Part shown: one piece after another, positions 28,003 through 46,505 of the stretch
Position numbering within the stretch: position 1 is the first letter of the stretch
Layout of the letters: every line of letters begins with the position of its first letter
Source of the DNA: Escherichia phage vB_EcoM_ECO78
Strand: one strand, 5' to 3'
DNA: 64,000 bases
Sequence record: PP526941.1
Position numbers and translations under genes: made by a program
The notes under the pieces: model-generated
What the model was told of the DNA's origin: nothing
Seen by the model: only the letters and a program-made list of their open reading frames with translations
Databases searched by the model: none

Positions 28003-29462
28003 AAACCAGTTACCTCATGAAAATCACCAAATACATCTTCGAATGTATTAGCTTTAGTTTTATCTTCACGCAAACGAATCGCAATTGGAAGAAATAATTT
28101 AACGTAATCGGTGCGGCCATCAGATTTTAACCAACCGTTGCATTCGCACTCTAGAATTTTTCCAATATAATAATTTTGGTTTTCCATAATGCGAGTACGG
28201 TCAAGTTCATGCGATTTTACACCGGCTTTATCTTTTAAGCCTGAACCAGCATTTACTTTAATTTTTCCACACTCTGACTCAAGAATAAATCCACCCGCTT
28301 TAGTAGGGTCTTTACGGTGAGGATAAATTCCTACAATTTTTAAATCAACATCAATTACTTCTTTAAATTTATAGAGATTTTTTGAACGAGCATTTTCCCA
28401 TAATCCATCGATATTTTTGAGAATAATACCTTCAAGACCTTGGTCAATATACTTTTTATAAATTACCTTAGCTTCATCCAGGTTATTTACTACTTGGTTT
28501 TCAATTAAAATTACTTTATCATAGCCTGATGTCATTTGTTCTAGTTTAGAAAAACGTACATCATATTTCAAACGAAATGCTGGAAGACCGTATATTTCTA
28601 CCAACGGTACATAATCCCAGACCTGAAACTTCATGCATTGTGCTTCTTTTTCTGAAATAGTTCCCTTTAAAGATTTATTGGCGATGCCATTAGATGCAGT
28701 ACGTGATTCAGCTACTTCTGTGAAGTCTTTAGCTTTACTGTTTTCAGGGTGAGCATCAAAAAGAAAATCTAGGCCTTCTGGTTCCTTTTCAACTTGCTCA
28801 TGGTATACCAATTCGCCATCAATTAACACACCTTCTGGATGAATCTGGCGGGCTTCAGCAGTCATTTTGATTAATTCTTCCTTAAGAAGATCTAATCCTA
28901 GATATTCATTACCAGCTCGTGATAAAAGACGAACATCATCTAATTCATCGCCTCGGACTTCAGCAAAACACCGAGCTCCATCAGCTTTTAACTGGGCAAA
29001 GGCTGGAAATTTGATATTCTTATTAATGCCTTTTTCATCATAAGAACTTGCTAGCATTTGAGGTTGTTCAGGAATTAAACCTGGCCAAACTTTGTTTGCA
29101 ATAGATACTGAAGCACCACATTCAAGGTCTCGCATCATCACTCGACGCAAAACTTCAACATCATCTTTTTTACCGTCAGTAATATAACCTACTAATTCCT
29201 CAATTGCCGCATTTCCAGTCAATTTCCGAGTAGCTAACGTGAATTCAATGAAGTCAAGCATATCGGTAAGAGTCAACATTCCAAAACTCTGGGTAGCAAT
29301 ACCAGGTTTAGGCCATTTCTTGATATAATATTGTAACCCACGAGAATAAGTCAGACGATATACTCGTTTAAGCAATTCATTATCTTTATTCTTTTCAAGA
29401 ATTGCTTGCTTCTGCTTAGTTGAACCAATAGATGCTATTTCGTTCAGAATTTTAAGAATCAT
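27999..29462 (-). CDS. 30: ATP-dependent DNA ligase gp30
   Basis: 487 aa; adenylation motif KADG (AQLKADGARCF); sequence recognised as essentially the T4 DNA ligase. Confidence 0.96.
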   Translation of the reverse strand: MILKILNEIASIGSTKQKQAILEKNKDNELLKRVYRLTYSRGLQYYIKKWPKPGIATQSFGMLTLTDMLDFIEFTLATRKLTGNAAIEELVGYITDGKKDDVEVLRRVMMRDLECGASVSIANKVWPGLIPEQPQMLASSYDEKGINKNIKFPAFAQLKADGARCFAEVRGDELDDVRLLSRAGNEYLGLDLLKEELIKMTAEARQIHPEGVLIDGELVYHEQVEKEPEGLDFLFDAHPENSKAKDFTEVAESRTASNGIANKSLKGTISEKEAQCMKFQVWDYVPLVEIYGLPAFRLKYDVRFSKLEQMTSGYDKVILIENQVVNNLDEAKVIYKKYIDQGLEGIILKNIDGLWENARSKNLYKFKEVIDVDLKIVGIYPHRKDPTKAGGFILESECGKIKVNAGSGLKDKAGVKSHELDRTRIMENQNYYIGKILECECNGWLKSDGRTDYVKLFLPIAIRLREDKTKANTFEDVFGDFHEVTGL

Positions 29463-29728
29463 TGCTCATCCTTTAGAGTTTGGTTTACAGCTCTATTATA
29501 AATCAATTCATCATTAAGCTCAGTCAAAGACCTATGATATGTAGTTCTAACTTTATTTCCTTGCATCCAATGCTTGACGTAAATGAAACCTTGCTCTACA
29601 CATTTTTTAAAAATTCGTTCGTCTTTTTGAGCTCGGAATTCTGGATTGCATCTAAAAAATTGATTTACGTGACCATAATCACGTGTAGTATTACCTTCAT
29701 TTTCATAAATAGTGTGAACAACAAACAT
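29459..29728 (-). CDS. hypothetical protein (position of T4 30.1)
   Basis: 89 aa; ATGA-coupled upstream of gene 30. Confidence 0.55.
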   Translation of the reverse strand: MFVVHTIYENEGNTTRDYGHVNQFFRCNPEFRAQKDERIFKKCVEQGFIYVKHWMQGNKVRTTYHRSLTELNDELIYNRAVNQTLKDEQ

Positions 29729-30582
29729 TAGAATGCTCCTTGGAAAATATTATCACCACTACCACTAGTAAGTCTATTAAAATACCCTGCATCGCCGGGC
29801 TTAATATAACTCCACGTATGGAATGGATGCATCTGGTGTGAGTGCGTATAATATGGATGATATGGATTATAAGGATTAAATCCAGGAGTTCTCCAGGTAG
29901 TGTTCCAGCGAAAAGAATCGTTTTTAATCATCTTCTCAATTACATCTTTTATAGCTTTTTCACTATCAAAATTTTCTTTATTTTCCTTCAATGGAAAAAG
30001 CTTATTCTCTACATCATTCCATGTATAAACTCGCTGTGCAGTTTTTGGAATATTGTCACGCTCTCCTCGAGCCATCCAATACACAGGAACACGTAATATT
30101 TCACTCGCATGATCGCAGTGGTGAGCGAGATCGTCAATATAACAAATTACGTTATATTTCTCTTTTGCCTTTTTGAACAACTCTTCTTTTGAAGAATCAT
30201 GACCACACATCATTACTTCCGAGAAGGCACCAGGAAAAAGAGCATTCAAATTAAATTGACGATTCAACAAAGCGTCAATAGAATCACCCAATGCTGTAAC
30301 AGCTACAAAATTATAATCTTCTTTTAATTTGTTAATTACACACAGGGCATCTTTATATGGAGACAAATAACGAATAAAATCTGATCGATTGTATTTTTCA
30401 ATTAGCTTAACGCCAAGTTCTTCATCACAATTAAAGAGTTTACCTGGAGAAATAAATTTCTCATCCTGGATCATTTTTAAAATATGTTCCAACGGAAGAT
30501 TATATTTCTGAGCAAAATAAGGAAGGCCTGATTGCCAGCTTAAACATACTCCATCAATATCAGTTAAAATAGTAGGCTTCAT
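29728..30582 (-). CDS. HAD-superfamily hydrolase-like protein (position of T4 30.2)
   Basis: 284 aa; N-terminal HAD motif I ILTDIDGVCL; family assignment from motif only. Confidence 0.6.
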   Translation of the reverse strand: MKPTILTDIDGVCLSWQSGLPYFAQKYNLPLEHILKMIQDEKFISPGKLFNCDEELGVKLIEKYNRSDFIRYLSPYKDALCVINKLKEDYNFVAVTALGDSIDALLNRQFNLNALFPGAFSEVMMCGHDSSKEELFKKAKEKYNVICYIDDLAHHCDHASEILRVPVYWMARGERDNIPKTAQRVYTWNDVENKLFPLKENKENFDSEKAIKDVIEKMIKNDSFRWNTTWRTPGFNPYNPYHPYYTHSHQMHPFHTWSYIKPGDAGYFNRLTSGSGDNIFQGAF

Positions 30583-31043
30583 AGAGAGTCTCTTAATAGG
30601 TTTAACACATCAATAAATTCAGCTTCGGTTAGTATTGTATCATCTTTTGTTAGACCACTAGCCATGCTGTGCTTCAAAACTTTTCCTTTCGAGGCTTGTA
30701 ATGCATCACGAAAGCCCTTGTTTTGGATCGCTGCTTCAAAATATGCATTTGTGTATAATTCTTTCCACGCCGGGGAGTATCTTGAAAATGGAACTCCAAG
30801 CCAGAAGAGGGTCCCACGGTCCTGAGCTCTAGCATAAGCTCGTCCAGCTTGTTGGGCGGCAAGCCCGGATAACCCAAATATACGTCTTTGCTGTTCAACA
30901 TTTTTCACTTTACATCCTTGAAGGAATCCTTCGAGACCTCCAAATTGAATGCCATCCATAACGAAAGGCCATTGGGCGAAATTACTTAATGCACATGATG
31001 GCCATCTAAAATTACTTCTAATCTCTAACTCAGACATTTTCAA
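30579..31043 (-). CDS. NADAR (YbiA-like) domain protein (position of T4 30.3)
   Basis: 154 aa; resemblance to the NADAR/DUF1768 family (WPSCALSNFAQ...FxxxEx pattern); family assignment is by recollection, not search. Confidence 0.55.
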   Translation of the reverse strand: MKMSELEIRSNFRWPSCALSNFAQWPFVMDGIQFGGLEGFLQGCKVKNVEQQRRIFGLSGLAAQQAGRAYARAQDRGTLFWLGVPFSRYSPAWKELYTNAYFEAAIQNKGFRDALQASKGKVLKHSMASGLTKDDTILTEAEFIDVLNLLRDSL

Positions 31044-31236
31044 TGCTTATAATTTCAACATCAGCCCAATGACCATAGCAAGGAAGACGAAATTCAACTG
31101 GCCAGTTAGGGTCCTTTTCTAATATAATAGACTCAACTTGTGGTTCTTCGTGTTCATCAGTATACGGATTTTTATCTGTTACTTTATATGTGACCTTAAT
31201 GTACTGAATTCCAAAAATCTTATTAATTATATTCAT
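31030..31236 (-). CDS. hypothetical protein
   Basis: 68-aa ORF in the tightly packed 30.x block. Confidence 0.45.
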   Translation of the reverse strand: MNIINKIFGIQYIKVTYKVTDKNPYTDEHEEPQVESIILEKDPNWPVEFRLPCYGHWADVEIISIENV

Positions 31237-31430
31237 ACTAATTCCTTTAATCCGTAAATAGGAGATAATTCATCACCCATACGAAGGTCTTCATTTCCAT
31301 CTACCCAGGAAACAATATAAGCCTCTTTTATTTGAATACCACTCCATTTAAATGGAGATAGAACCTTAGAAATTAATCCAGGTATACCAACTCCCTTTAA
31401 TTCAACAGTTTGACCTAAAAAGAATTTCAT
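31233..31430 (-). CDS. hypothetical protein
   Basis: 65-aa ORF, ATGA-coupled. Confidence 0.45.
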   Translation of the reverse strand: MKFFLGQTVELKGVGIPGLISKVLSPFKWSGIQIKEAYIVSWVDGNEDLRMGDELSPIYGLKELV

Positions 31431-31717
31431 TAGAACCTCATCTGAAAACCGTGCGATTTAACATTACCTCCGCCAATATCAGAAATATTAATTTCACGCG
31501 CAATTGAAGGGTCAATGTCAATTTCACGATTGAGTTTAGTGATAGCTAAAGTATCGCGCCCATTTACAGTACGGAACTCTAAAGGACAAACCACATCAAC
31601 GTAGTTTTTAATCGATTCGCTAGTAGGTTGCAAATGTGCAGGAAGGTCTTTAGGTGCCTTTGAGAAAACCACTTCACAGAAATTTTTGCGGGTATCAAAA
31701 TAAGTAGTCATAAACAT
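31430..31717 (-). CDS. hypothetical protein
   Basis: 95-aa ORF; GAGGAAAA SD after an upstream hairpin. Confidence 0.5.
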   Translation of the reverse strand: MFMTTYFDTRKNFCEVVFSKAPKDLPAHLQPTSESIKNYVDVVCPLEFRTVNGRDTLAITKLNREIDIDPSIAREINISDIGGGNVKSHGFQMRF

Positions 31718-31733
31718 AACATTTTCCTCAATA

Positions 31734-31747
31734 GGGGCCGAAGCCCC
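31734..31747 (-). terminator. GC hairpin (GGGGC-UUCG-GCCCC) between two 30.x ORFs
   Basis: Inverted repeat read in sequence; weak U tract. Confidence 0.4.
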
Positions 31748-31757
31748 TCATTTATTT

Positions 31758-32123
31758 TTAAATATCAAATTCGTTAAGAACTACATCAAAGACTGCTTCC
31801 AAGTGCTCAGGTTTAGCTTTGTTACTCAGAATATGACGAATCCAAGTTTTAACTAAGAGTTTACGATTAACACCATTCCAGCAAGGATGAGTCCCTAAAT
31901 CGCGTTGACGAAAATCATCATCCAAAGCGATTTTGAAGTTGGAACCTTCCATTGTGATTGAAACCGTGATGCCATTTTCAAATCGCATATAAACGTAGTT
32001 AGGAGTCATATACTGTTCAATTTCGCATACTGATCCATTTTGATGTTTCCAAAGGCAAATAGTATCAATAGAACCTGCAATACCATTAGAAACATATTTA
32101 CGTTCAAAGTTAATGTAGTTCAT
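31758..32123 (-). CDS. hypothetical protein
   Basis: 121-aa ORF. Confidence 0.55.
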   Translation of the reverse strand: MNYINFERKYVSNGIAGSIDTICLWKHQNGSVCEIEQYMTPNYVYMRFENGITVSITMEGSNFKIALDDDFRQRDLGTHPCWNGVNRKLLVKTWIRHILSNKAKPEHLEAVFDVVLNEFDI

Positions 32124-32191
32124 TTTTATTCTCCGAGATGTTTAATTGCGGTACAGGTATATAATATCATATCCTGTACCAAAGTAAACAA

Positions 32192-32524
32192 TTATTTTAC
32201 TACTTTCCAGTGCTGCATGTCAAGTTTACCAACTTTTTTCATCTTCTCAATTAAGCGTTCTGCGCGTTGGCGAGCTGTAACATAATGCCATTCACCTAAT
32301 TCATTTTGTTCAATTTTTCCAACGATTACTGTATTCAATTCATAAATCCAACCAGTAAAGAAATTATGAACTTGAATTGTAAAGGTGAAATCTGTTCCCA
32401 TACCTTCTGTTGTTTCTACTTCAATAATATCACCTTCAACTGCCATTAAGAACCACATAGTTTCATCATATTTACCGTTGAAGCATTTAGTTTTAACTGC
32501 AGCGTTCAGATTAATTGTTTTCAT
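32192..32524 (-). CDS. hypothetical protein
   Basis: 110-aa ORF preceded by an early-type promoter and AAAGGAG SD. Confidence 0.55.
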   Translation of the reverse strand: MKTINLNAAVKTKCFNGKYDETMWFLMAVEGDIIEVETTEGMGTDFTFTIQVHNFFTGWIYELNTVIVGKIEQNELGEWHYVTARQRAERLIEKMKKVGKLDMQHWKVVK

Positions 32525-32551
32525 TTTATTCTCCTTTGTTTGTGTAAGATA

Positions 32552-32581
32552 ATACTATCACAAAGGAACCGTACTGTAAAC
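32552..32581 (-). promoter_or_regulatory. candidate T4 early-type promoter
   Basis: Minus strand GTTTAC, about 18-nt spacer, TAGTAT; lies directly downstream of a terminator hairpin. Confidence 0.4.
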
Positions 32582-32611
32582 AACTTTATGCAATCTTTGG
32601 AAAATAAAAAA

Positions 32612-32629
32612 GGACTCCCGAAGGAGTCC
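32612..32629 (-). terminator. rho-independent terminator
   Basis: GGACUCC-UUCG-GGAGUCC followed on the minus strand by UUUUUUAUUUU. Confidence 0.65.
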
Positions 32630-32634
32630 TCAAC

Positions 32635-32853
32635 TTATGCTTTCTGCTTACCAAAACGAGAAGCATCATCTCGAAGAACCGCACGTGCTCGACGCATGAT
32701 CTTCTCAACAGTTTGATTGATACGAGAGTTCGACCCACGCTTGTAGCCAGCGCGTTTAGAATCACCAACTTTCTTTTCAACTGCTTTCTTTGCTTTAGCT
32801 TGTTTTGCCATTATAAATTCTCTTTTAAATGAAAATGCAGGACTTATTGGCAT
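32635..32853 (-). CDS. small highly basic hypothetical protein
   Basis: 72-aa ORF (58 aa from the internal ATG); Lys/Arg-rich. Confidence 0.45.
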   Translation of the reverse strand: MPISPAFSFKREFIMAKQAKAKKAVEKKVGDSKRAGYKRGSNSRINQTVEKIMRRARAVLRDDASRFGKQKA

Positions 32854-32930
32854 TGCCTGCGCAAGCCCTCAAGGGGTACTTAGGTTTTGAATATTTACCG
32901 ACAGGATAACCATAAACCTCGTCAACATAA

Positions 32931-33179
32931 TTACTTCAGTGTTACCACAAAGTGACGAACTGCTTTTCGCGCAGCAGAAGCCAGAGGCTTAGCATATTTA
33001 AGTTCATCTTTTTCCTGAAGCTCAGCAGCTAATGCAGTTTGAGCAGGATTCAGATGTTTGAAATAACGCAGGATTTCAAGAGCTTCGGCTTCAACATCAA
33101 TAGATGCGCCATAGTTTTCGTGACCATTATTCCATGCGTTTCGTTGCAGTTCAAGAGCGTGTTGTAATTGTTTAATCAT
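32931..33179 (-). CDS. rIII: probable RIII lysis-inhibition accessory protein
   Basis: 82 aa, matching the T4 rIII length, and located beside gene 31; assignment by length and synteny. Confidence 0.5.
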   Translation of the reverse strand: MIKQLQHALELQRNAWNNGHENYGASIDVEAEALEILRYFKHLNPAQTALAAELQEKDELKYAKPLASAARKAVRHFVVTLK

Positions 33180-33326
33180 TTAAAAATTCTCGTTAGAGAT
33201 TAAAACTCGGTAGTCACGTTCTTCTGAATTTCATCTTCTTTCGACAGATCTCTCAGTTGTAGACTACCACATAGAATTGTTCGGTTAACTTATTATTCCG
33301 ACACCCAATTCATATTATTATTTATA

Positions 33327-33662
33327 TCACTTATAAAGACACGGAATAGCTTTATAGTGACAAGTAACGAATTTTTGTTTAATTTCTTTTGGCTGCTTAA
33401 GACCCAGAGCTACAAAAGGATGCGGAACATTTCGAATTTGACCAACTGGAAGAGAAGTCAAATCACCAACTTCGCAGAAACCTTCAGGAACATCAGGACC
33501 GACAGAGTGAACTACACACAGTTCAGGAACTTCACCTTGAACACGTTTACCAATAATAAGTCCTGATTCTGTAACTTCTTCATCACCGGCTTGTGCAGGT
33601 TCAGAAACTAAAATAACATATTCACCGACAGCACGAATTGGTAGCTGTTGTACTTCAGACAT
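33327..33662 (-). CDS. 31: co-chaperonin gp31 (GroES analogue for capsid folding)
   Basis: 111 aa; synteny near cd; N-terminus [18 protein letters not shown]. Confidence 0.85.
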
Positions 33663-33718
33663 CGTTTTTCCTTTTTGTTAACAGATGAATTAATAATAAC
33701 AAATAATTCTTAAAGCAT

Positions 33719-34027
33719 TTATTTACCGATAAATTGAAGCAAATGCTCAACTTTCATACCATTAACAGAAATCAATTTGTCAATAGAAAAACCTCGCCAT
33801 GCACCAAGTTCAACATCAAATACTGGAATCATGTCAGTAGATTCTTTCCGAGTAGATTCAGTCAATTTACCAGTTTGCATGGTTGGCATAAAGTCTGCAT
33901 CACGAGTACCTTTCATAGTACGAATAGTACCATCAGACTTTTCAAAAACTACGTTTGAAACACCCATGGACAATTTAGTTTTCAAAATTTCACGAATTGC
34001 TACTTTCTGTTCAGTTGTCAGTTTCAT
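33719..34027 (-). CDS. hypothetical protein
   Basis: 102-aa ORF between gene 31 and cd. Confidence 0.55.
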   Translation of the reverse strand: MKLTTEQKVAIREILKTKLSMGVSNVVFEKSDGTIRTMKGTRDADFMPTMQTGKLTESTRKESTDMIPVFDVELGAWRGFSIDKLISVNGMKVEHLLQFIGK

Positions 34028-34264
34028 TTATTTACCTATTACAGTTTTAATATGGGTTGTTCCACGTTCTTTAAGGGTGGAAAGCAATTTTTGGCATTTT
34101 TCTAAATCAGATTTCCAACTATACGGCCTATCAATACTAGTCCAATCAGTTTTATAATACTGTTTCCATTTAGAGAAAAAATATTTCTTATACTCTACAG
34201 CAAATGAAATGTTCTCGTTAGAATAAGAACTAATTGCTGTGAGCTGTACCAAACGAAATTTCAT
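34028..34264 (-). CDS. hypothetical protein
   Basis: 78-aa ORF, ATGA-coupled to cd. Confidence 0.5.
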   Translation of the reverse strand: MKFRLVQLTAISSYSNENISFAVEYKKYFFSKWKQYYKTDWTSIDRPYSWKSDLEKCQKLLSTLKERGTTHIKTVIGK

Positions 34265-34845
34265 TATTCACCACAGAATTCGTTGATATTTTCCCAGTTT
34301 AACTTATTCAAGTTTTTCTTAGGAACATTAAACACTTCAATACCTGCATTTCGCAGAATATCATCCCAACCAGGTTTATTTTTATCGTATGTTTCGCAAT
34401 AAACCAGCTTTTTAATTCCAGATTGAGCTATCGCTTTTGCGCAATCTGGACAAGGAGAAAGTGTTACATACATAGTAGCACCTTCAATAGAAGAACCATT
34501 TCGTGCAGCAAACAAAATTGCGTTTAGTTCAGCATGAATTTCATTTTTAGATGACCATTCCGAGTGAGCACTACGATGTTCTTTCGCCAAGACAAAACGA
34601 TCAGTTGAACCAAATGATACGCATTCAGGCTTATGACCTTGAATGATAGTATGTTTAGGCTTATTTAACAACCAACCTTGCTCAGCAGCATAATCACAAC
34701 AGTTCACACCCCCTGCGGGGGAACCATTATACCCAGTAGAAATAATACGTCCATTCTTTTCAATTACTGCTCCTACCTTCCAGGAGCAGCATTTTGATTC
34801 TTGTGATACTAAATATGCAATTTGAAGTACTGTACTCGCTTTCAT
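34264..34845 (-). CDS. cd: dCMP deaminase
   Basis: 193 aa; cytidine/deoxycytidylate deaminase zinc motifs HAELNAI and PCPDC. Confidence 0.92.
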   Translation of the reverse strand: MKASTVLQIAYLVSQESKCCSWKVGAVIEKNGRIISTGYNGSPAGGVNCCDYAAEQGWLLNKPKHTIIQGHKPECVSFGSTDRFVLAKEHRSAHSEWSSKNEIHAELNAILFAARNGSSIEGATMYVTLSPCPDCAKAIAQSGIKKLVYCETYDKNKPGWDDILRNAGIEVFNVPKKNLNKLNWENINEFCGE

Positions 34846-35180
34846 TTCATAATCACCAGATAAGCAGATTTAGCAGTTTCAACACGATAAATTTCGTGAC
34901 GAAGTTTAGTTATACTTTTAATAACAGAACTAATTATATTCTGCCCATCTTTAAAGCGGTTTTTCTTATCAATAAAAACTGCGCCAGTCATCTTTTTGTG
35001 AAGCTCAACTGGATACTTCGTCACAATAATAGCATCATACACAGAAGGATGAATACTATTCACCAGAGTATCATTCATTAAAGTTATTCTAATGAACTGT
35101 GCTGTTTCAGAATCAAGCGCTCTATGATCGCCAGTATCATTTTCAAGACAATTATCAATTATATCAGTTAAATTCATCAT
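34842..35180 (-). CDS. hypothetical protein
   Basis: 112-aa ORF. Confidence 0.5.
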   Translation of the reverse strand: MMNLTDIIDNCLENDTGDHRALDSETAQFIRITLMNDTLVNSIHPSVYDAIIVTKYPVELHKKMTGAVFIDKKNRFKDGQNIISSVIKSITKLRHEIYRVETAKSAYLVIMK

Positions 35181-35446: not shown

Positions 35447-35476
35447 ATAATATCACAACTCTACCGTAAAGTAAAC
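35447..35476 (-). promoter_or_regulatory. candidate T4 early-type promoter
   Basis: Minus strand GTTTAC, 18-nt spacer, TATTAT. Confidence 0.4.
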
Positions 35477-46207: not shown

Positions 46208-46450
46208 TTAAACAGACTTTTTCACAATTTTCCAATCAACTTTAAACTGCTCGACGTCAGAATGGTAAATCCAGAATCCTGCGCTTTCTCCGTCTTCATA
46301 AAGAGGACATCCATCGCATTCATCTTCCCACCCCATATCGCGTAAAAGATGTTCAGCTTTTTCAACAAGTTCAGAATCTTTACCAATGATATTAAAATAC
46401 CATTTACCTCTAACTTCTGAATCTTTGATGCTCTGACGCTGTAATCTCAT
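46208..46450 (-). CDS. hypothetical protein (frd.x position)
   Basis: 80-aa ORF with GGAG SD, downstream of an early-type promoter. Confidence 0.5.
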   Translation of the reverse strand: MRLQRQSIKDSEVRGKWYFNIIGKDSELVEKAEHLLRDMGWEDECDGCPLYEDGESAGFWIYHSDVEQFKVDWKIVKKSV

Positions 46451-46475
46451 TTTATTCTCCTTAGTTGATAGGGTA

Positions 46476-46505
46476 ATAGTATCACACTACTACCCTTCTG
46501 TAAAC
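46476..46505 (-). promoter_or_regulatory. candidate T4 early-type promoter
   Basis: Minus strand GTTTAC, about 18-nt spacer, TACTAT. Confidence 0.4.

Follow-up and report, generated by a model that had tools for sequence, protein, structure and literature searches.

An early accessory cluster corresponding to T4 genes 30.4–30.9 in Escherichia phage vB_EcoM_ECO78, with described control elements and small proteins that probably bind host molecules

Between genes 30.3 and rIII, T4-like phages carry a run of small genes, 30.4–30.9, that has been labelled 'conserved hypothetical' in annotation for decades. A study of this region reportedly lists in its abstract RegB sites, a stem-loop and early promoters, along with a rho-independent terminator that is conserved. 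Here we analyze the corresponding block, positions 31030–32853, in a stretch of 64,000 nt from Escherichia phage vB_EcoM_ECO78 (PP526941.1); we refer to the whole stretch as the window, and all counts given for the window are for these 64 kb. Our reading, to which we assign a probability of about 0.75, is that the block is the T4 early accessory cluster 30.4–30.9, that its control elements are ones already described, and that its proteins act as binders of host molecules. PMC9409239 cites a study devoted to transcription and RNA processing here, the title of which points to precisely this region (Truncaite et al. 2006, Virology 344:378), and the genes have T4 names; an earlier note on this DNA, made from the sequence alone and hereafter called the original prediction, had presented the block as the least characterized part of the window, yet it is not undescribed.

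The closest described system is T4 itself. There, 30.4–30.8 are classed as early at both the RNA and the protein level, while 30.9 is called early at one of these levels and left unclassified at the second (PMC9697503 supplement), which agrees with the expectation of an early-expressed cassette of small proteins. In a CRISPRi-ART screen, knock-down of 30.4, 30.5, 30.7, 30.8 and 30.9 was scored 'Not Fit' and that of 30.6 'Semi-Fit', a borderline value (score 0.72, p 0.067), as compared with 4.1 and 'Fit' for gene 31 (PMC11879866 supplement). The six proteins are thus real early products that are dispensable in the laboratory host. T4 30.5 co-purifies with the host polyphosphate kinase (Ppk), which a reciprocal pull-down confirms; co-expression of 30.5 with bNACHT11, an NLR-related defence protein, abolishes colony formation, and T4 escapes bNACHT11 once 30.5 and two further triggers are deleted (bioRxiv 10.1101/2024.12.17.629029). 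The adjoining gene 30.3 encodes AdfN, a NADAR ADP-ribosylglycohydrolase that takes DarT1 ADP-ribose off DNA and is necessary and sufficient against DarTG1 (PMC11257639), a role confirmed by transposon sequencing (bioRxiv 10.1101/2025.11.20.689424). With a Ppk-binding trigger of bNACHT11 close to AdfN, the view of this locus as one where T-even phages keep host-directed factors is supported. In literature searches that used gene names, accessions and locus tags, 30.4, 30.6, 30.8 and 30.9 turned up only in annotation tables, and 30.7 only through its transcript as a RegB substrate.

Across window positions 30500–33300, T4 (AF158101, 128228–131154) is 97.8% identical at the nucleotide level, and many other Tequatrovirus genomes match likewise; under the match, the T4 record carries 30.3, 30.4, 30.5, 30.6, 30.7, 30.8, 30.9 and rIII on one common strand. 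The block holds six minus-strand open reading frames (ORFs), first called at 68, 65, 95, 121, 110 and 72 aa, whose products are 96.7–100% identical, gene by gene, to T4 gp30.4–gp30.9. On the strength of these identities we assign them to T4 genes 30.4, 30.5, 30.6, 30.7, 30.8 and 30.9, in a T4-like Tequatrovirus. The gene order between 30.3/30.2 on the ligase side and rIII/31 is the same in T4, Bas45, JS98, SP18, JS09 and the IMG/VR loci. The genes of the block and its two neighbors are as follows.

31030–31236, minus strand: gene 30.4, 68 aa, acidic (isoelectric point (pI) 4.6), 98.5% identical to T4 gp30.4, phrog_2042; ratio of non-synonymous to synonymous substitution rates (dN/dS) 0.21–0.28.
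31233–31430, minus strand: gene 30.5, 65 aa, 98.5% identical to T4 gp30.5 over all 65 residues.
31430–31717, minus strand: gene 30.6, 95 aa, a T4-like-restricted family, 98.9% identical to T4 gp30.6; dN/dS 0.06–0.09.
31758–32123, minus strand: gene 30.7, 121 aa, Pfam PF06919.
32192–32524, minus strand: gene 30.8, 110 aa, Pfam PF06019, 100% identical to T4 gp30.8.
32635–32811, minus strand: gene 30.9, 58 aa, pI 11.4, 19 Lys+Arg, 100% identical to T4 gp30.9; start fixed by alignment.
30579–31037, minus strand: gene 30.3 (adfN), NADAR ADP-ribosylglycohydrolase, 98.7% identical to T4 gp30.3, Pfam PF08010.
32931–33179, minus strand: rIII, flanking the block on the 30.9 side.

Among the six, Pfam returned just the self-named families of 30.7 (E 1.6e-52) and 30.8 (E 2.4e-58). 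For the gp30.4–gp30.9 families the full-length matches were, in that order, phrog_2042, 1690, 2153, 1582, 1507 and 1427 (E 4e-35 to 1.9e-65), all of which PHROGs places in the category 'unknown function'. Six small ORFs between a NADAR-like gene and rIII, without recognizable motifs, are what the original prediction had described, and both points stand. Its size range of 65–121 aa is right for five of them and wrong for the last. The 72-aa call of 30.9 includes 14 extra N-terminal residues that are unrelated between phages, while all sequences in an alignment of 27 homologs share a MAKQ start; because the additional codons are not conserved and the homologs begin at MAKQ, 30.9 is 58 aa rather than 72 aa long, the short form that is also annotated in T4, JS98, SP18 and KP179. 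Measured against JS98 and SP18, dN/dS of all six lies at 0.06–0.33, close to the values for rIII and gene 31, and all six are real genes under purifying selection. The junctions, listed in the direction of transcription, separate spaced genes from an overlapping chain.

Junction 30.9/30.8, minus strand: 110-nt gap.
Junction 30.8/30.7, minus strand: 68-nt gap.
Junction 30.7/30.6, minus strand: 40-nt gap.
Junction 30.6/30.5, minus strand: TAATG, 1-nt overlap.
Junction 30.5/30.4, minus strand: ATGA, 4-nt overlap.
Junction 30.4/30.3, minus strand: 8-nt overlap, with the 30.4 stop over the 30.3 start.
Junction 30.3/30.2, minus strand: ATGA, 4-nt overlap.
Junction 30.2/30.1, minus strand: TAATG, 1-nt overlap.

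Several ATGA-coupled pairs had been announced for the block; 30.5/30.4 do share an ATGA, but theirs is the sole such pair within it, 30.6/30.5 being joined by TAATG and 30.4/30.3 by 8 nt.

Generic scans of the region, taken alone, did not rise above chance, with 15 sigma-70 promoter-like sites against 13.2 expected and 4 terminator-like sites against 2.0 expected; since these scans are uninformative, the evidence for regulatory signals comes from T4-specific patterns and from conservation across phages. The T4 early-promoter pattern GTTTAC-N14-16-TGNTANNNT occurs 8 times in the window where 0.19 occurrences are expected, every one of them on the minus strand and two of them in the block. Both block sites are of the type GTTTAC–TGnTAnnnT, in which 17–18 bp separate the -35 element GTTTAC from a TG-extended -10, and are oriented with the genes. 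They and the terminator that precedes them are as follows.

32600–32631, minus strand: intrinsic terminator after 30.9, with a 9-bp stem (hairpin 32610–32631), a UUCG loop and the U-tract UUUUUUAUUUU.
32552–32581, minus strand: early promoter of 30.8, GTTTAC-N18-TAGTAT, TG-extended -10, from the pattern scan.
32161–32189, minus strand: early promoter of 30.7, GTTTAC-N17-TATTAT, TG-extended -10, from the pattern scan.

The promoter of 30.8 is identical in T4 and Bas45 save for the spacer, and that of 30.7 is conserved in SP18, KP179, IME523, JS09 and the IMG/VR loci. The terminator (-16.4 kcal/mol, z-score (z) -4.0) combines a GC stem with a U-tract on the transcribed strand, as is required of an intrinsic terminator, and recurs behind 30.9 in KP179, IME523, SP18 and JS98, which represent four other genera. 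We found no other minus-strand terminator-like site from the early promoter (35447–35476) down to this terminator, and the scan downstream to 26500 yielded none further except 32657–32673, a weak stem of 5 bp that falls inside 30.9; within the scanned stretches about the block, the site at 32600–32631 is the sole one that is not in coding sequence. An Rfam scan of 29000–35000 returned nothing but sub-threshold chance matches, and the match of the terminator to 'Atu_C8', which scored 31 bits where 50 is the cut-off, was rejected on that account. The original prediction had named the GTTTAC-type promoter at 32552–32581, which is real and fits the enriched pattern, but it had overlooked the second one before 30.7. 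It had also named two GC hairpins, and both are present (31733–31748 and 32610–32631). Its picture of repeated pairs of terminator and early promoter holds for one pair, 32600–32631 with 32552–32581, and fails for the other hairpin, which has neither a U-tract nor a promoter.

The layout of these signals suggests three modules. An upstream unit appears to start at the early promoter 35447–35476, to run through cd, 31.2, 31.1, 31, rIII and 30.9, and to end at 32600–32631. As no terminator lies between 35476 and 32631, and as the promoter scan found no recognizable promoter in the 119-bp spacer between rIII and 30.9, we infer that 30.9 is the last cistron of this unit rather than a member of the group from 30.8 to 30. 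After the terminator, transcription would begin anew at two strong T4-type sigma-70 early promoters that serve 30.8 and 30.7 respectively, so that these two genes appear to form a second module with promoters of their own. The third would be the overlapping chain 30.6–30.5–30.4, which seems to continue through 30.3 (adfN), 30.2 and 30.1.

The ribosome-binding sites of the two genes that have their own promoters carry a further T4 signal. RegB, with S1, recognizes a single-stranded 11-nt site, GGAGRAYARAA, with a T4 optimum of GGAGAAUAAAA, located in the ribosome-binding site (PMC1702504), and cutting of the early 30.7 mRNA of T4 by RegB has served as an assay (PMC9409239).

32124–32134, minus strand: Shine-Dalgarno sequence of 30.7, a perfect 11-nt RegB/S1 site GGAGAAUAAAA.
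32524–32534, minus strand: Shine-Dalgarno sequence of 30.8, a perfect RegB/S1 site GGAGAAUAAAA.

Exact copies of GGAGAATAAAA number three in the window against 0.04 expected, two of the three being these ribosome-binding sites, and both sites are unpaired in predicted folds. As both ribosome-binding sites match the optimal target exactly, RegB should, by analogy with T4, cut them; cutting would be expected to stop translation of 30.8 and 30.7 minutes after infection and to leave each with a short burst of synthesis. The third perfect site lies at 46450–46460 on the minus strand, just downstream of the GTTTAC early promoter at 46476–46505.

An inverted repeat surrounds the -10 hexamer of the 30.7 promoter.

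32150–32180, minus strand: 31-nt inverted repeat GGTACAGGATAT…ATATACCTGTACC bracketing the -10 hexamer of the 30.7 promoter (-20.1 kcal/mol, z -4.7).

Promoter hairpins were assessed by folding each sequence individually with shuffled controls. A hairpin at this position is kept in 11 of 13 distinct orthologous promoters, with z of -3.1 to -7.1 relative to shuffles, and the sequences of its arms are wholly different from clade to clade; one clade has the GGAG ribosome-binding site as its 3' arm. RNAalifold found no consensus structure in the promoter alignment, because the register of the hairpin shifts between clades. As transcription is expected to start downstream of the 5' arm, the hairpin would form solely in read-through RNA or in DNA. 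Of the window's seven further GTTTAC promoters, two (those ending at 35476 and 46505) have the same dyad and the remaining five lack it. Since the promoter at 46476–46505 has both a -10-bracketing dyad and a RegB site, the design of promoter, hairpin and RegB site recurs elsewhere. The repeats of the 30.7 promoter and of the two other early promoters may be undescribed functional hairpins, formed in DNA or in read-through RNA; alternatively, the repeat at the 30.7 promoter may be the 'stem-loop' of Truncaite et al. 2006.

The distribution of the six genes was examined by tblastn and by a comparison of loci. Phage records with a match numbered 1041 for 30.8, 1005 for 30.9, 994 for 30.7, 804 for 30.6, 735 for 30.5 and 719 for 30.4; those for 30.4 are mostly Escherichia, Shigella and Yersinia phages, and those for 30.8 include Aeromonas phages. 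The locus comparison, which the original prediction had proposed, covered 31 IMG/VR loci and 8 GenBank phages; a first IMG/VR scan by a pattern of RegB site and start codon had been unspecific (3 relevant among 120 loci) and was replaced by a protein-guided scan. Genes 31, rIII, 30.9, 30.7, a 30.5-like ORF and 30.2 are nearly always present at the locus, and 30.8 usually is. Genes 30.3 and 30.4, and usually 30.6, are limited to Tequatrovirus, Mosigvirus, Dhakavirus and Gaprivervirus; in other genera, unrelated ORFs of 55–205 aa stand in for 30.3, 30.4 and 30.6, and a Pfam scan of these replacements, including ones deposited as 'peptidase inhibitor' and 'YorP', gave no match. The distance from 30.9 to 30.7 ranges from 126 to 1620 bp across the 31 loci. 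Gene content thus varies between genera, and by this comparison the locus is a plastic accessory region. Outside Straboviridae, a homolog of 30.7 (31% identity, E 1e-11) lies amid unrelated small ORFs in Klebsiella phage KaOmega of the Vequintavirinae (L009, 1801–2172), which suggests horizontal spread of 30.7.

Gene 30.9 has a distinctive pattern of conservation. Its homologs fall into 68 clusters, nearly all named ones coming from T4-like phages, and the alignment of 27 homologs has the invariant core SKRAGYKR…RARAVLRDD…FGKP. In Klebsiella and Enterobacter phages 30.9 retains 88–97% identity, as against 38–49% for 30.7 and 30.8, whereas in JS98 and SP18 it is only ~65% identical. Because one form is shared at 88–97% by T4-like, Klebsiella and Enterobacter phages and another, at ~65%, is found in JS98 and SP18, two alleles of 30.9 circulate; this pattern, opposite to that of the flanking genes, implies exchange between lineages. 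The conservation and charge of the protein suggest that it may bind nucleic acid or a nucleoprotein complex, possibly one of the host. In a profile search against the PDB, residues 30–54 (window 32650–32724) resembled residues 138–162 of E. coli SlmA, a nucleoid occlusion factor, at E 0.15; the match is not significant and is recorded as a lead only.

Searches for function were otherwise unproductive. Single-sequence searches of the PDB with all six proteins gave nothing below E 0.18, a PDB profile search with 30.7 gave nothing significant, and neither NCBIfam nor PADLOC returned anything usable for the six, a blank that is expected of PADLOC because it models defence rather than counter-defence proteins. 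Word-indexed homolog searches were shallow (6 proteins for 30.8 and 18 for 30.7, some of them chimeric), and an exhaustive phmmer search with 30.6 over 1.84 billion representatives gave 5 hits. The structure and fold-similarity check that had been recommended for each ORF produced one usable model: 30.7, from an alignment of 10 sequences, was predicted as seven beta strands followed by two C-terminal helices (predicted local distance difference test (pLDDT) 76, predicted template modelling score (pTM) 0.69), and Foldseek against the BFVD viral models found only its own family and no informative fold match. The AlphaFold2 model of 30.8, built with two usable homologs, reached a pLDDT of 50 and was discarded as unusable owing to the shallow homolog set.

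One may postulate that not all six ORFs are genes and that some merely stay open by chance, the phage DNA being rich in AT. They are short (58–121 aa), the Pfam and NCBIfam scans found no recognizable domains in them, and the 72-aa version of 30.9 was indeed an overcall. Each, however, is conserved in 719–1041 phage genomes and has a dN/dS well below 1, T4 makes detected early proteins from five of them, and in every case there is either a ribosome-binding site or an overlap with the gene before; this reading is effectively refuted. A different question is raised by the hairpin in front of 30.6.

31733–31748, minus strand: stable C(UUCG)G tetraloop hairpin directly 5' of the 30.6 Shine-Dalgarno sequence UGAGGAAA (-12.3 kcal/mol).

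Were this a second terminator, 30.6–30 would be a separate unit in need of its own promoter. The stem is GC-rich, the loop is UUCG, the element sits in an intergenic gap, and a simple scan does call it terminator-like, though on the plus strand only. On the transcribed strand it reads GGGGC-UUCG-GCCCC followed by UAUUGAGGAAAAUGUUAUG, with the Shine-Dalgarno sequence of 30.6 directly after it; the minus-strand sequence 3' of the stem is UAUUGAGGAAAAUG, which lacks the U-tract of an intrinsic terminator, and a T-run exists on the non-transcribed plus strand alone. There is no promoter between the hairpin and 30.6, whose ribosome-binding site follows within 7 nt. Furthermore, a module of the same build (a GC stem of 4–6 bp, a tetraloop, 3–8 nt and UGAGGAAA) follows 30.7 at approximately 25 of 27 distinct T4-like loci, irrespective of which gene comes next. 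Its stems covary (GGGGC, GGAGGC, GGGAGC, GGGCC, GGGC), its loops are UUCG, UUUG, GAAA or UACG, and a U-tract is never present (window 31718–31757; loci L131–L161). The retention of module and spacing in nearly all clades is a better fit to a stability or processing element, and we regard a second terminator as improbable; the hairpin is most likely an element of RNA stability or processing.

An alternative that concerns the proteins is that the five uncharacterized ones are dedicated anti-defence inhibitors, one immune system each, which would make the block a strict anti-defence island in place of a mixture of metabolic takeover factors with other binders of the host. Action against DarTG1 is proven for the overlapping neighbor 30.3/AdfN; the genes are expressed early, vary in content between genera and can be dispensed with in the laboratory host; and other T4 genes listed as function unknown have recently proved to be defence inhibitors, such as nrdC.1 against Septu. 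Nevertheless, 30.5, the sole characterized member, binds a metabolic enzyme (Ppk) and triggers defence rather than inhibiting it, and 30.9, at 88–97% across genera, is far more conserved than one would expect of a protein evolving fast in an arms race. T4 screens against RexAB, RnlAB, CBASS, DarTG1, DarTG2 and three clinical isolates name none of the six as hits. A strict island of this kind is therefore an explanation that we consider doubtful, although it is clearly a better contender than either of the two alternatives above. We favor the reading in which the proteins are small, confined to T4-like phages, dispensable in the laboratory host and probably active by binding host molecules.

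Several points weigh against this preferred reading and should be set beside it. Sequence, profile and fold searches found no function for five of the six proteins, and the texts of the published T4 transposon screens just listed name none of them. That 30.4, 30.6, 30.7 and 30.8 may each bind a host protein is inferred by analogy. The use of the promoters, termination and cutting by RegB are transferred to this phage from T4, so that they can only be presumed here, and the placement of 30.9 in the upstream unit hangs on the absence of a recognizable promoter from the 119-bp spacer, where T4 has a longer spacer of 244 bp. Taken as a whole, the inference of the original prediction holds for the early cassette and for the host-directed setting, and none of the six has a housekeeping homolog, which it had named as the finding that would refute it; it does not hold for novelty or for the paired architecture, and in what had been called the most likely place for a new function the tools at hand assigned none to the five uncharacterized proteins. 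That at least one of the five has a mechanistically new activity in host takeover or counter-defence is something we would propose only tentatively, with the odds leaning against it; the best candidate would be 30.9.

The genes, their early timing, their dispensability in the laboratory host and the control elements are already known, and re-finding the cluster in a T4-like genome adds little. What the present analysis adds is a corrected model of 30.9, the split into three modules, negative sequence searches for all six proteins and a negative fold search for 30.7, and the finding that most T4-like clades keep an inverted repeat about the -10 hexamer in the promoter of 30.7. The locus belongs to the 'dark matter' of T4: five conserved early proteins stand beside AdfN, together with 30.5, which binds a host kinase and is sensed by an NLR-like receptor. 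The cluster is a reasonable place to look for immune triggers or for new factors of host takeover.

Compared with the systems described to date, the block lies closest to its T4 equivalent and to the neighboring AdfN. Window 30.5 is 98.5% identical to T4 gp30.5 over 65 residues, and Ppk binding and bNACHT11 sensing are known from the T4 protein. AdfN resembles the six in being early and dispensable in the laboratory host; it shares the overlapping-gene chain, directly downstream of 30.4, and is restricted to four genera, as are 30.4 and usually 30.6. It differs in that it is an enzyme with a recognizable fold and bacterial relatives, neither of which the six ORFs have. With T4 30.4–30.9 (AF158101, 128758–130540) the window shares the gene set, the order and the intergenic signals; two differences are ~126 bp between rIII and 30.9 that are present in T4 and Bas45 and absent from the window (32854–32930), and the loop of the hairpin before 30.6, which is UUCA in T4 and UUCG here. 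The short rIII–30.9 form is common to vB_Eco_NR1 and EPIMAM01, which match the window in one piece. Finally, T4 early units combine GTTTAC promoters with RegB/S1 shut-off at GGAG sites, as at motA (PMC1702504, PMC9409239), and the two promoters, two perfect GGAGAAUAAAA sites, terminator and conserved stem-loop of the window match this design, with no difference seen.

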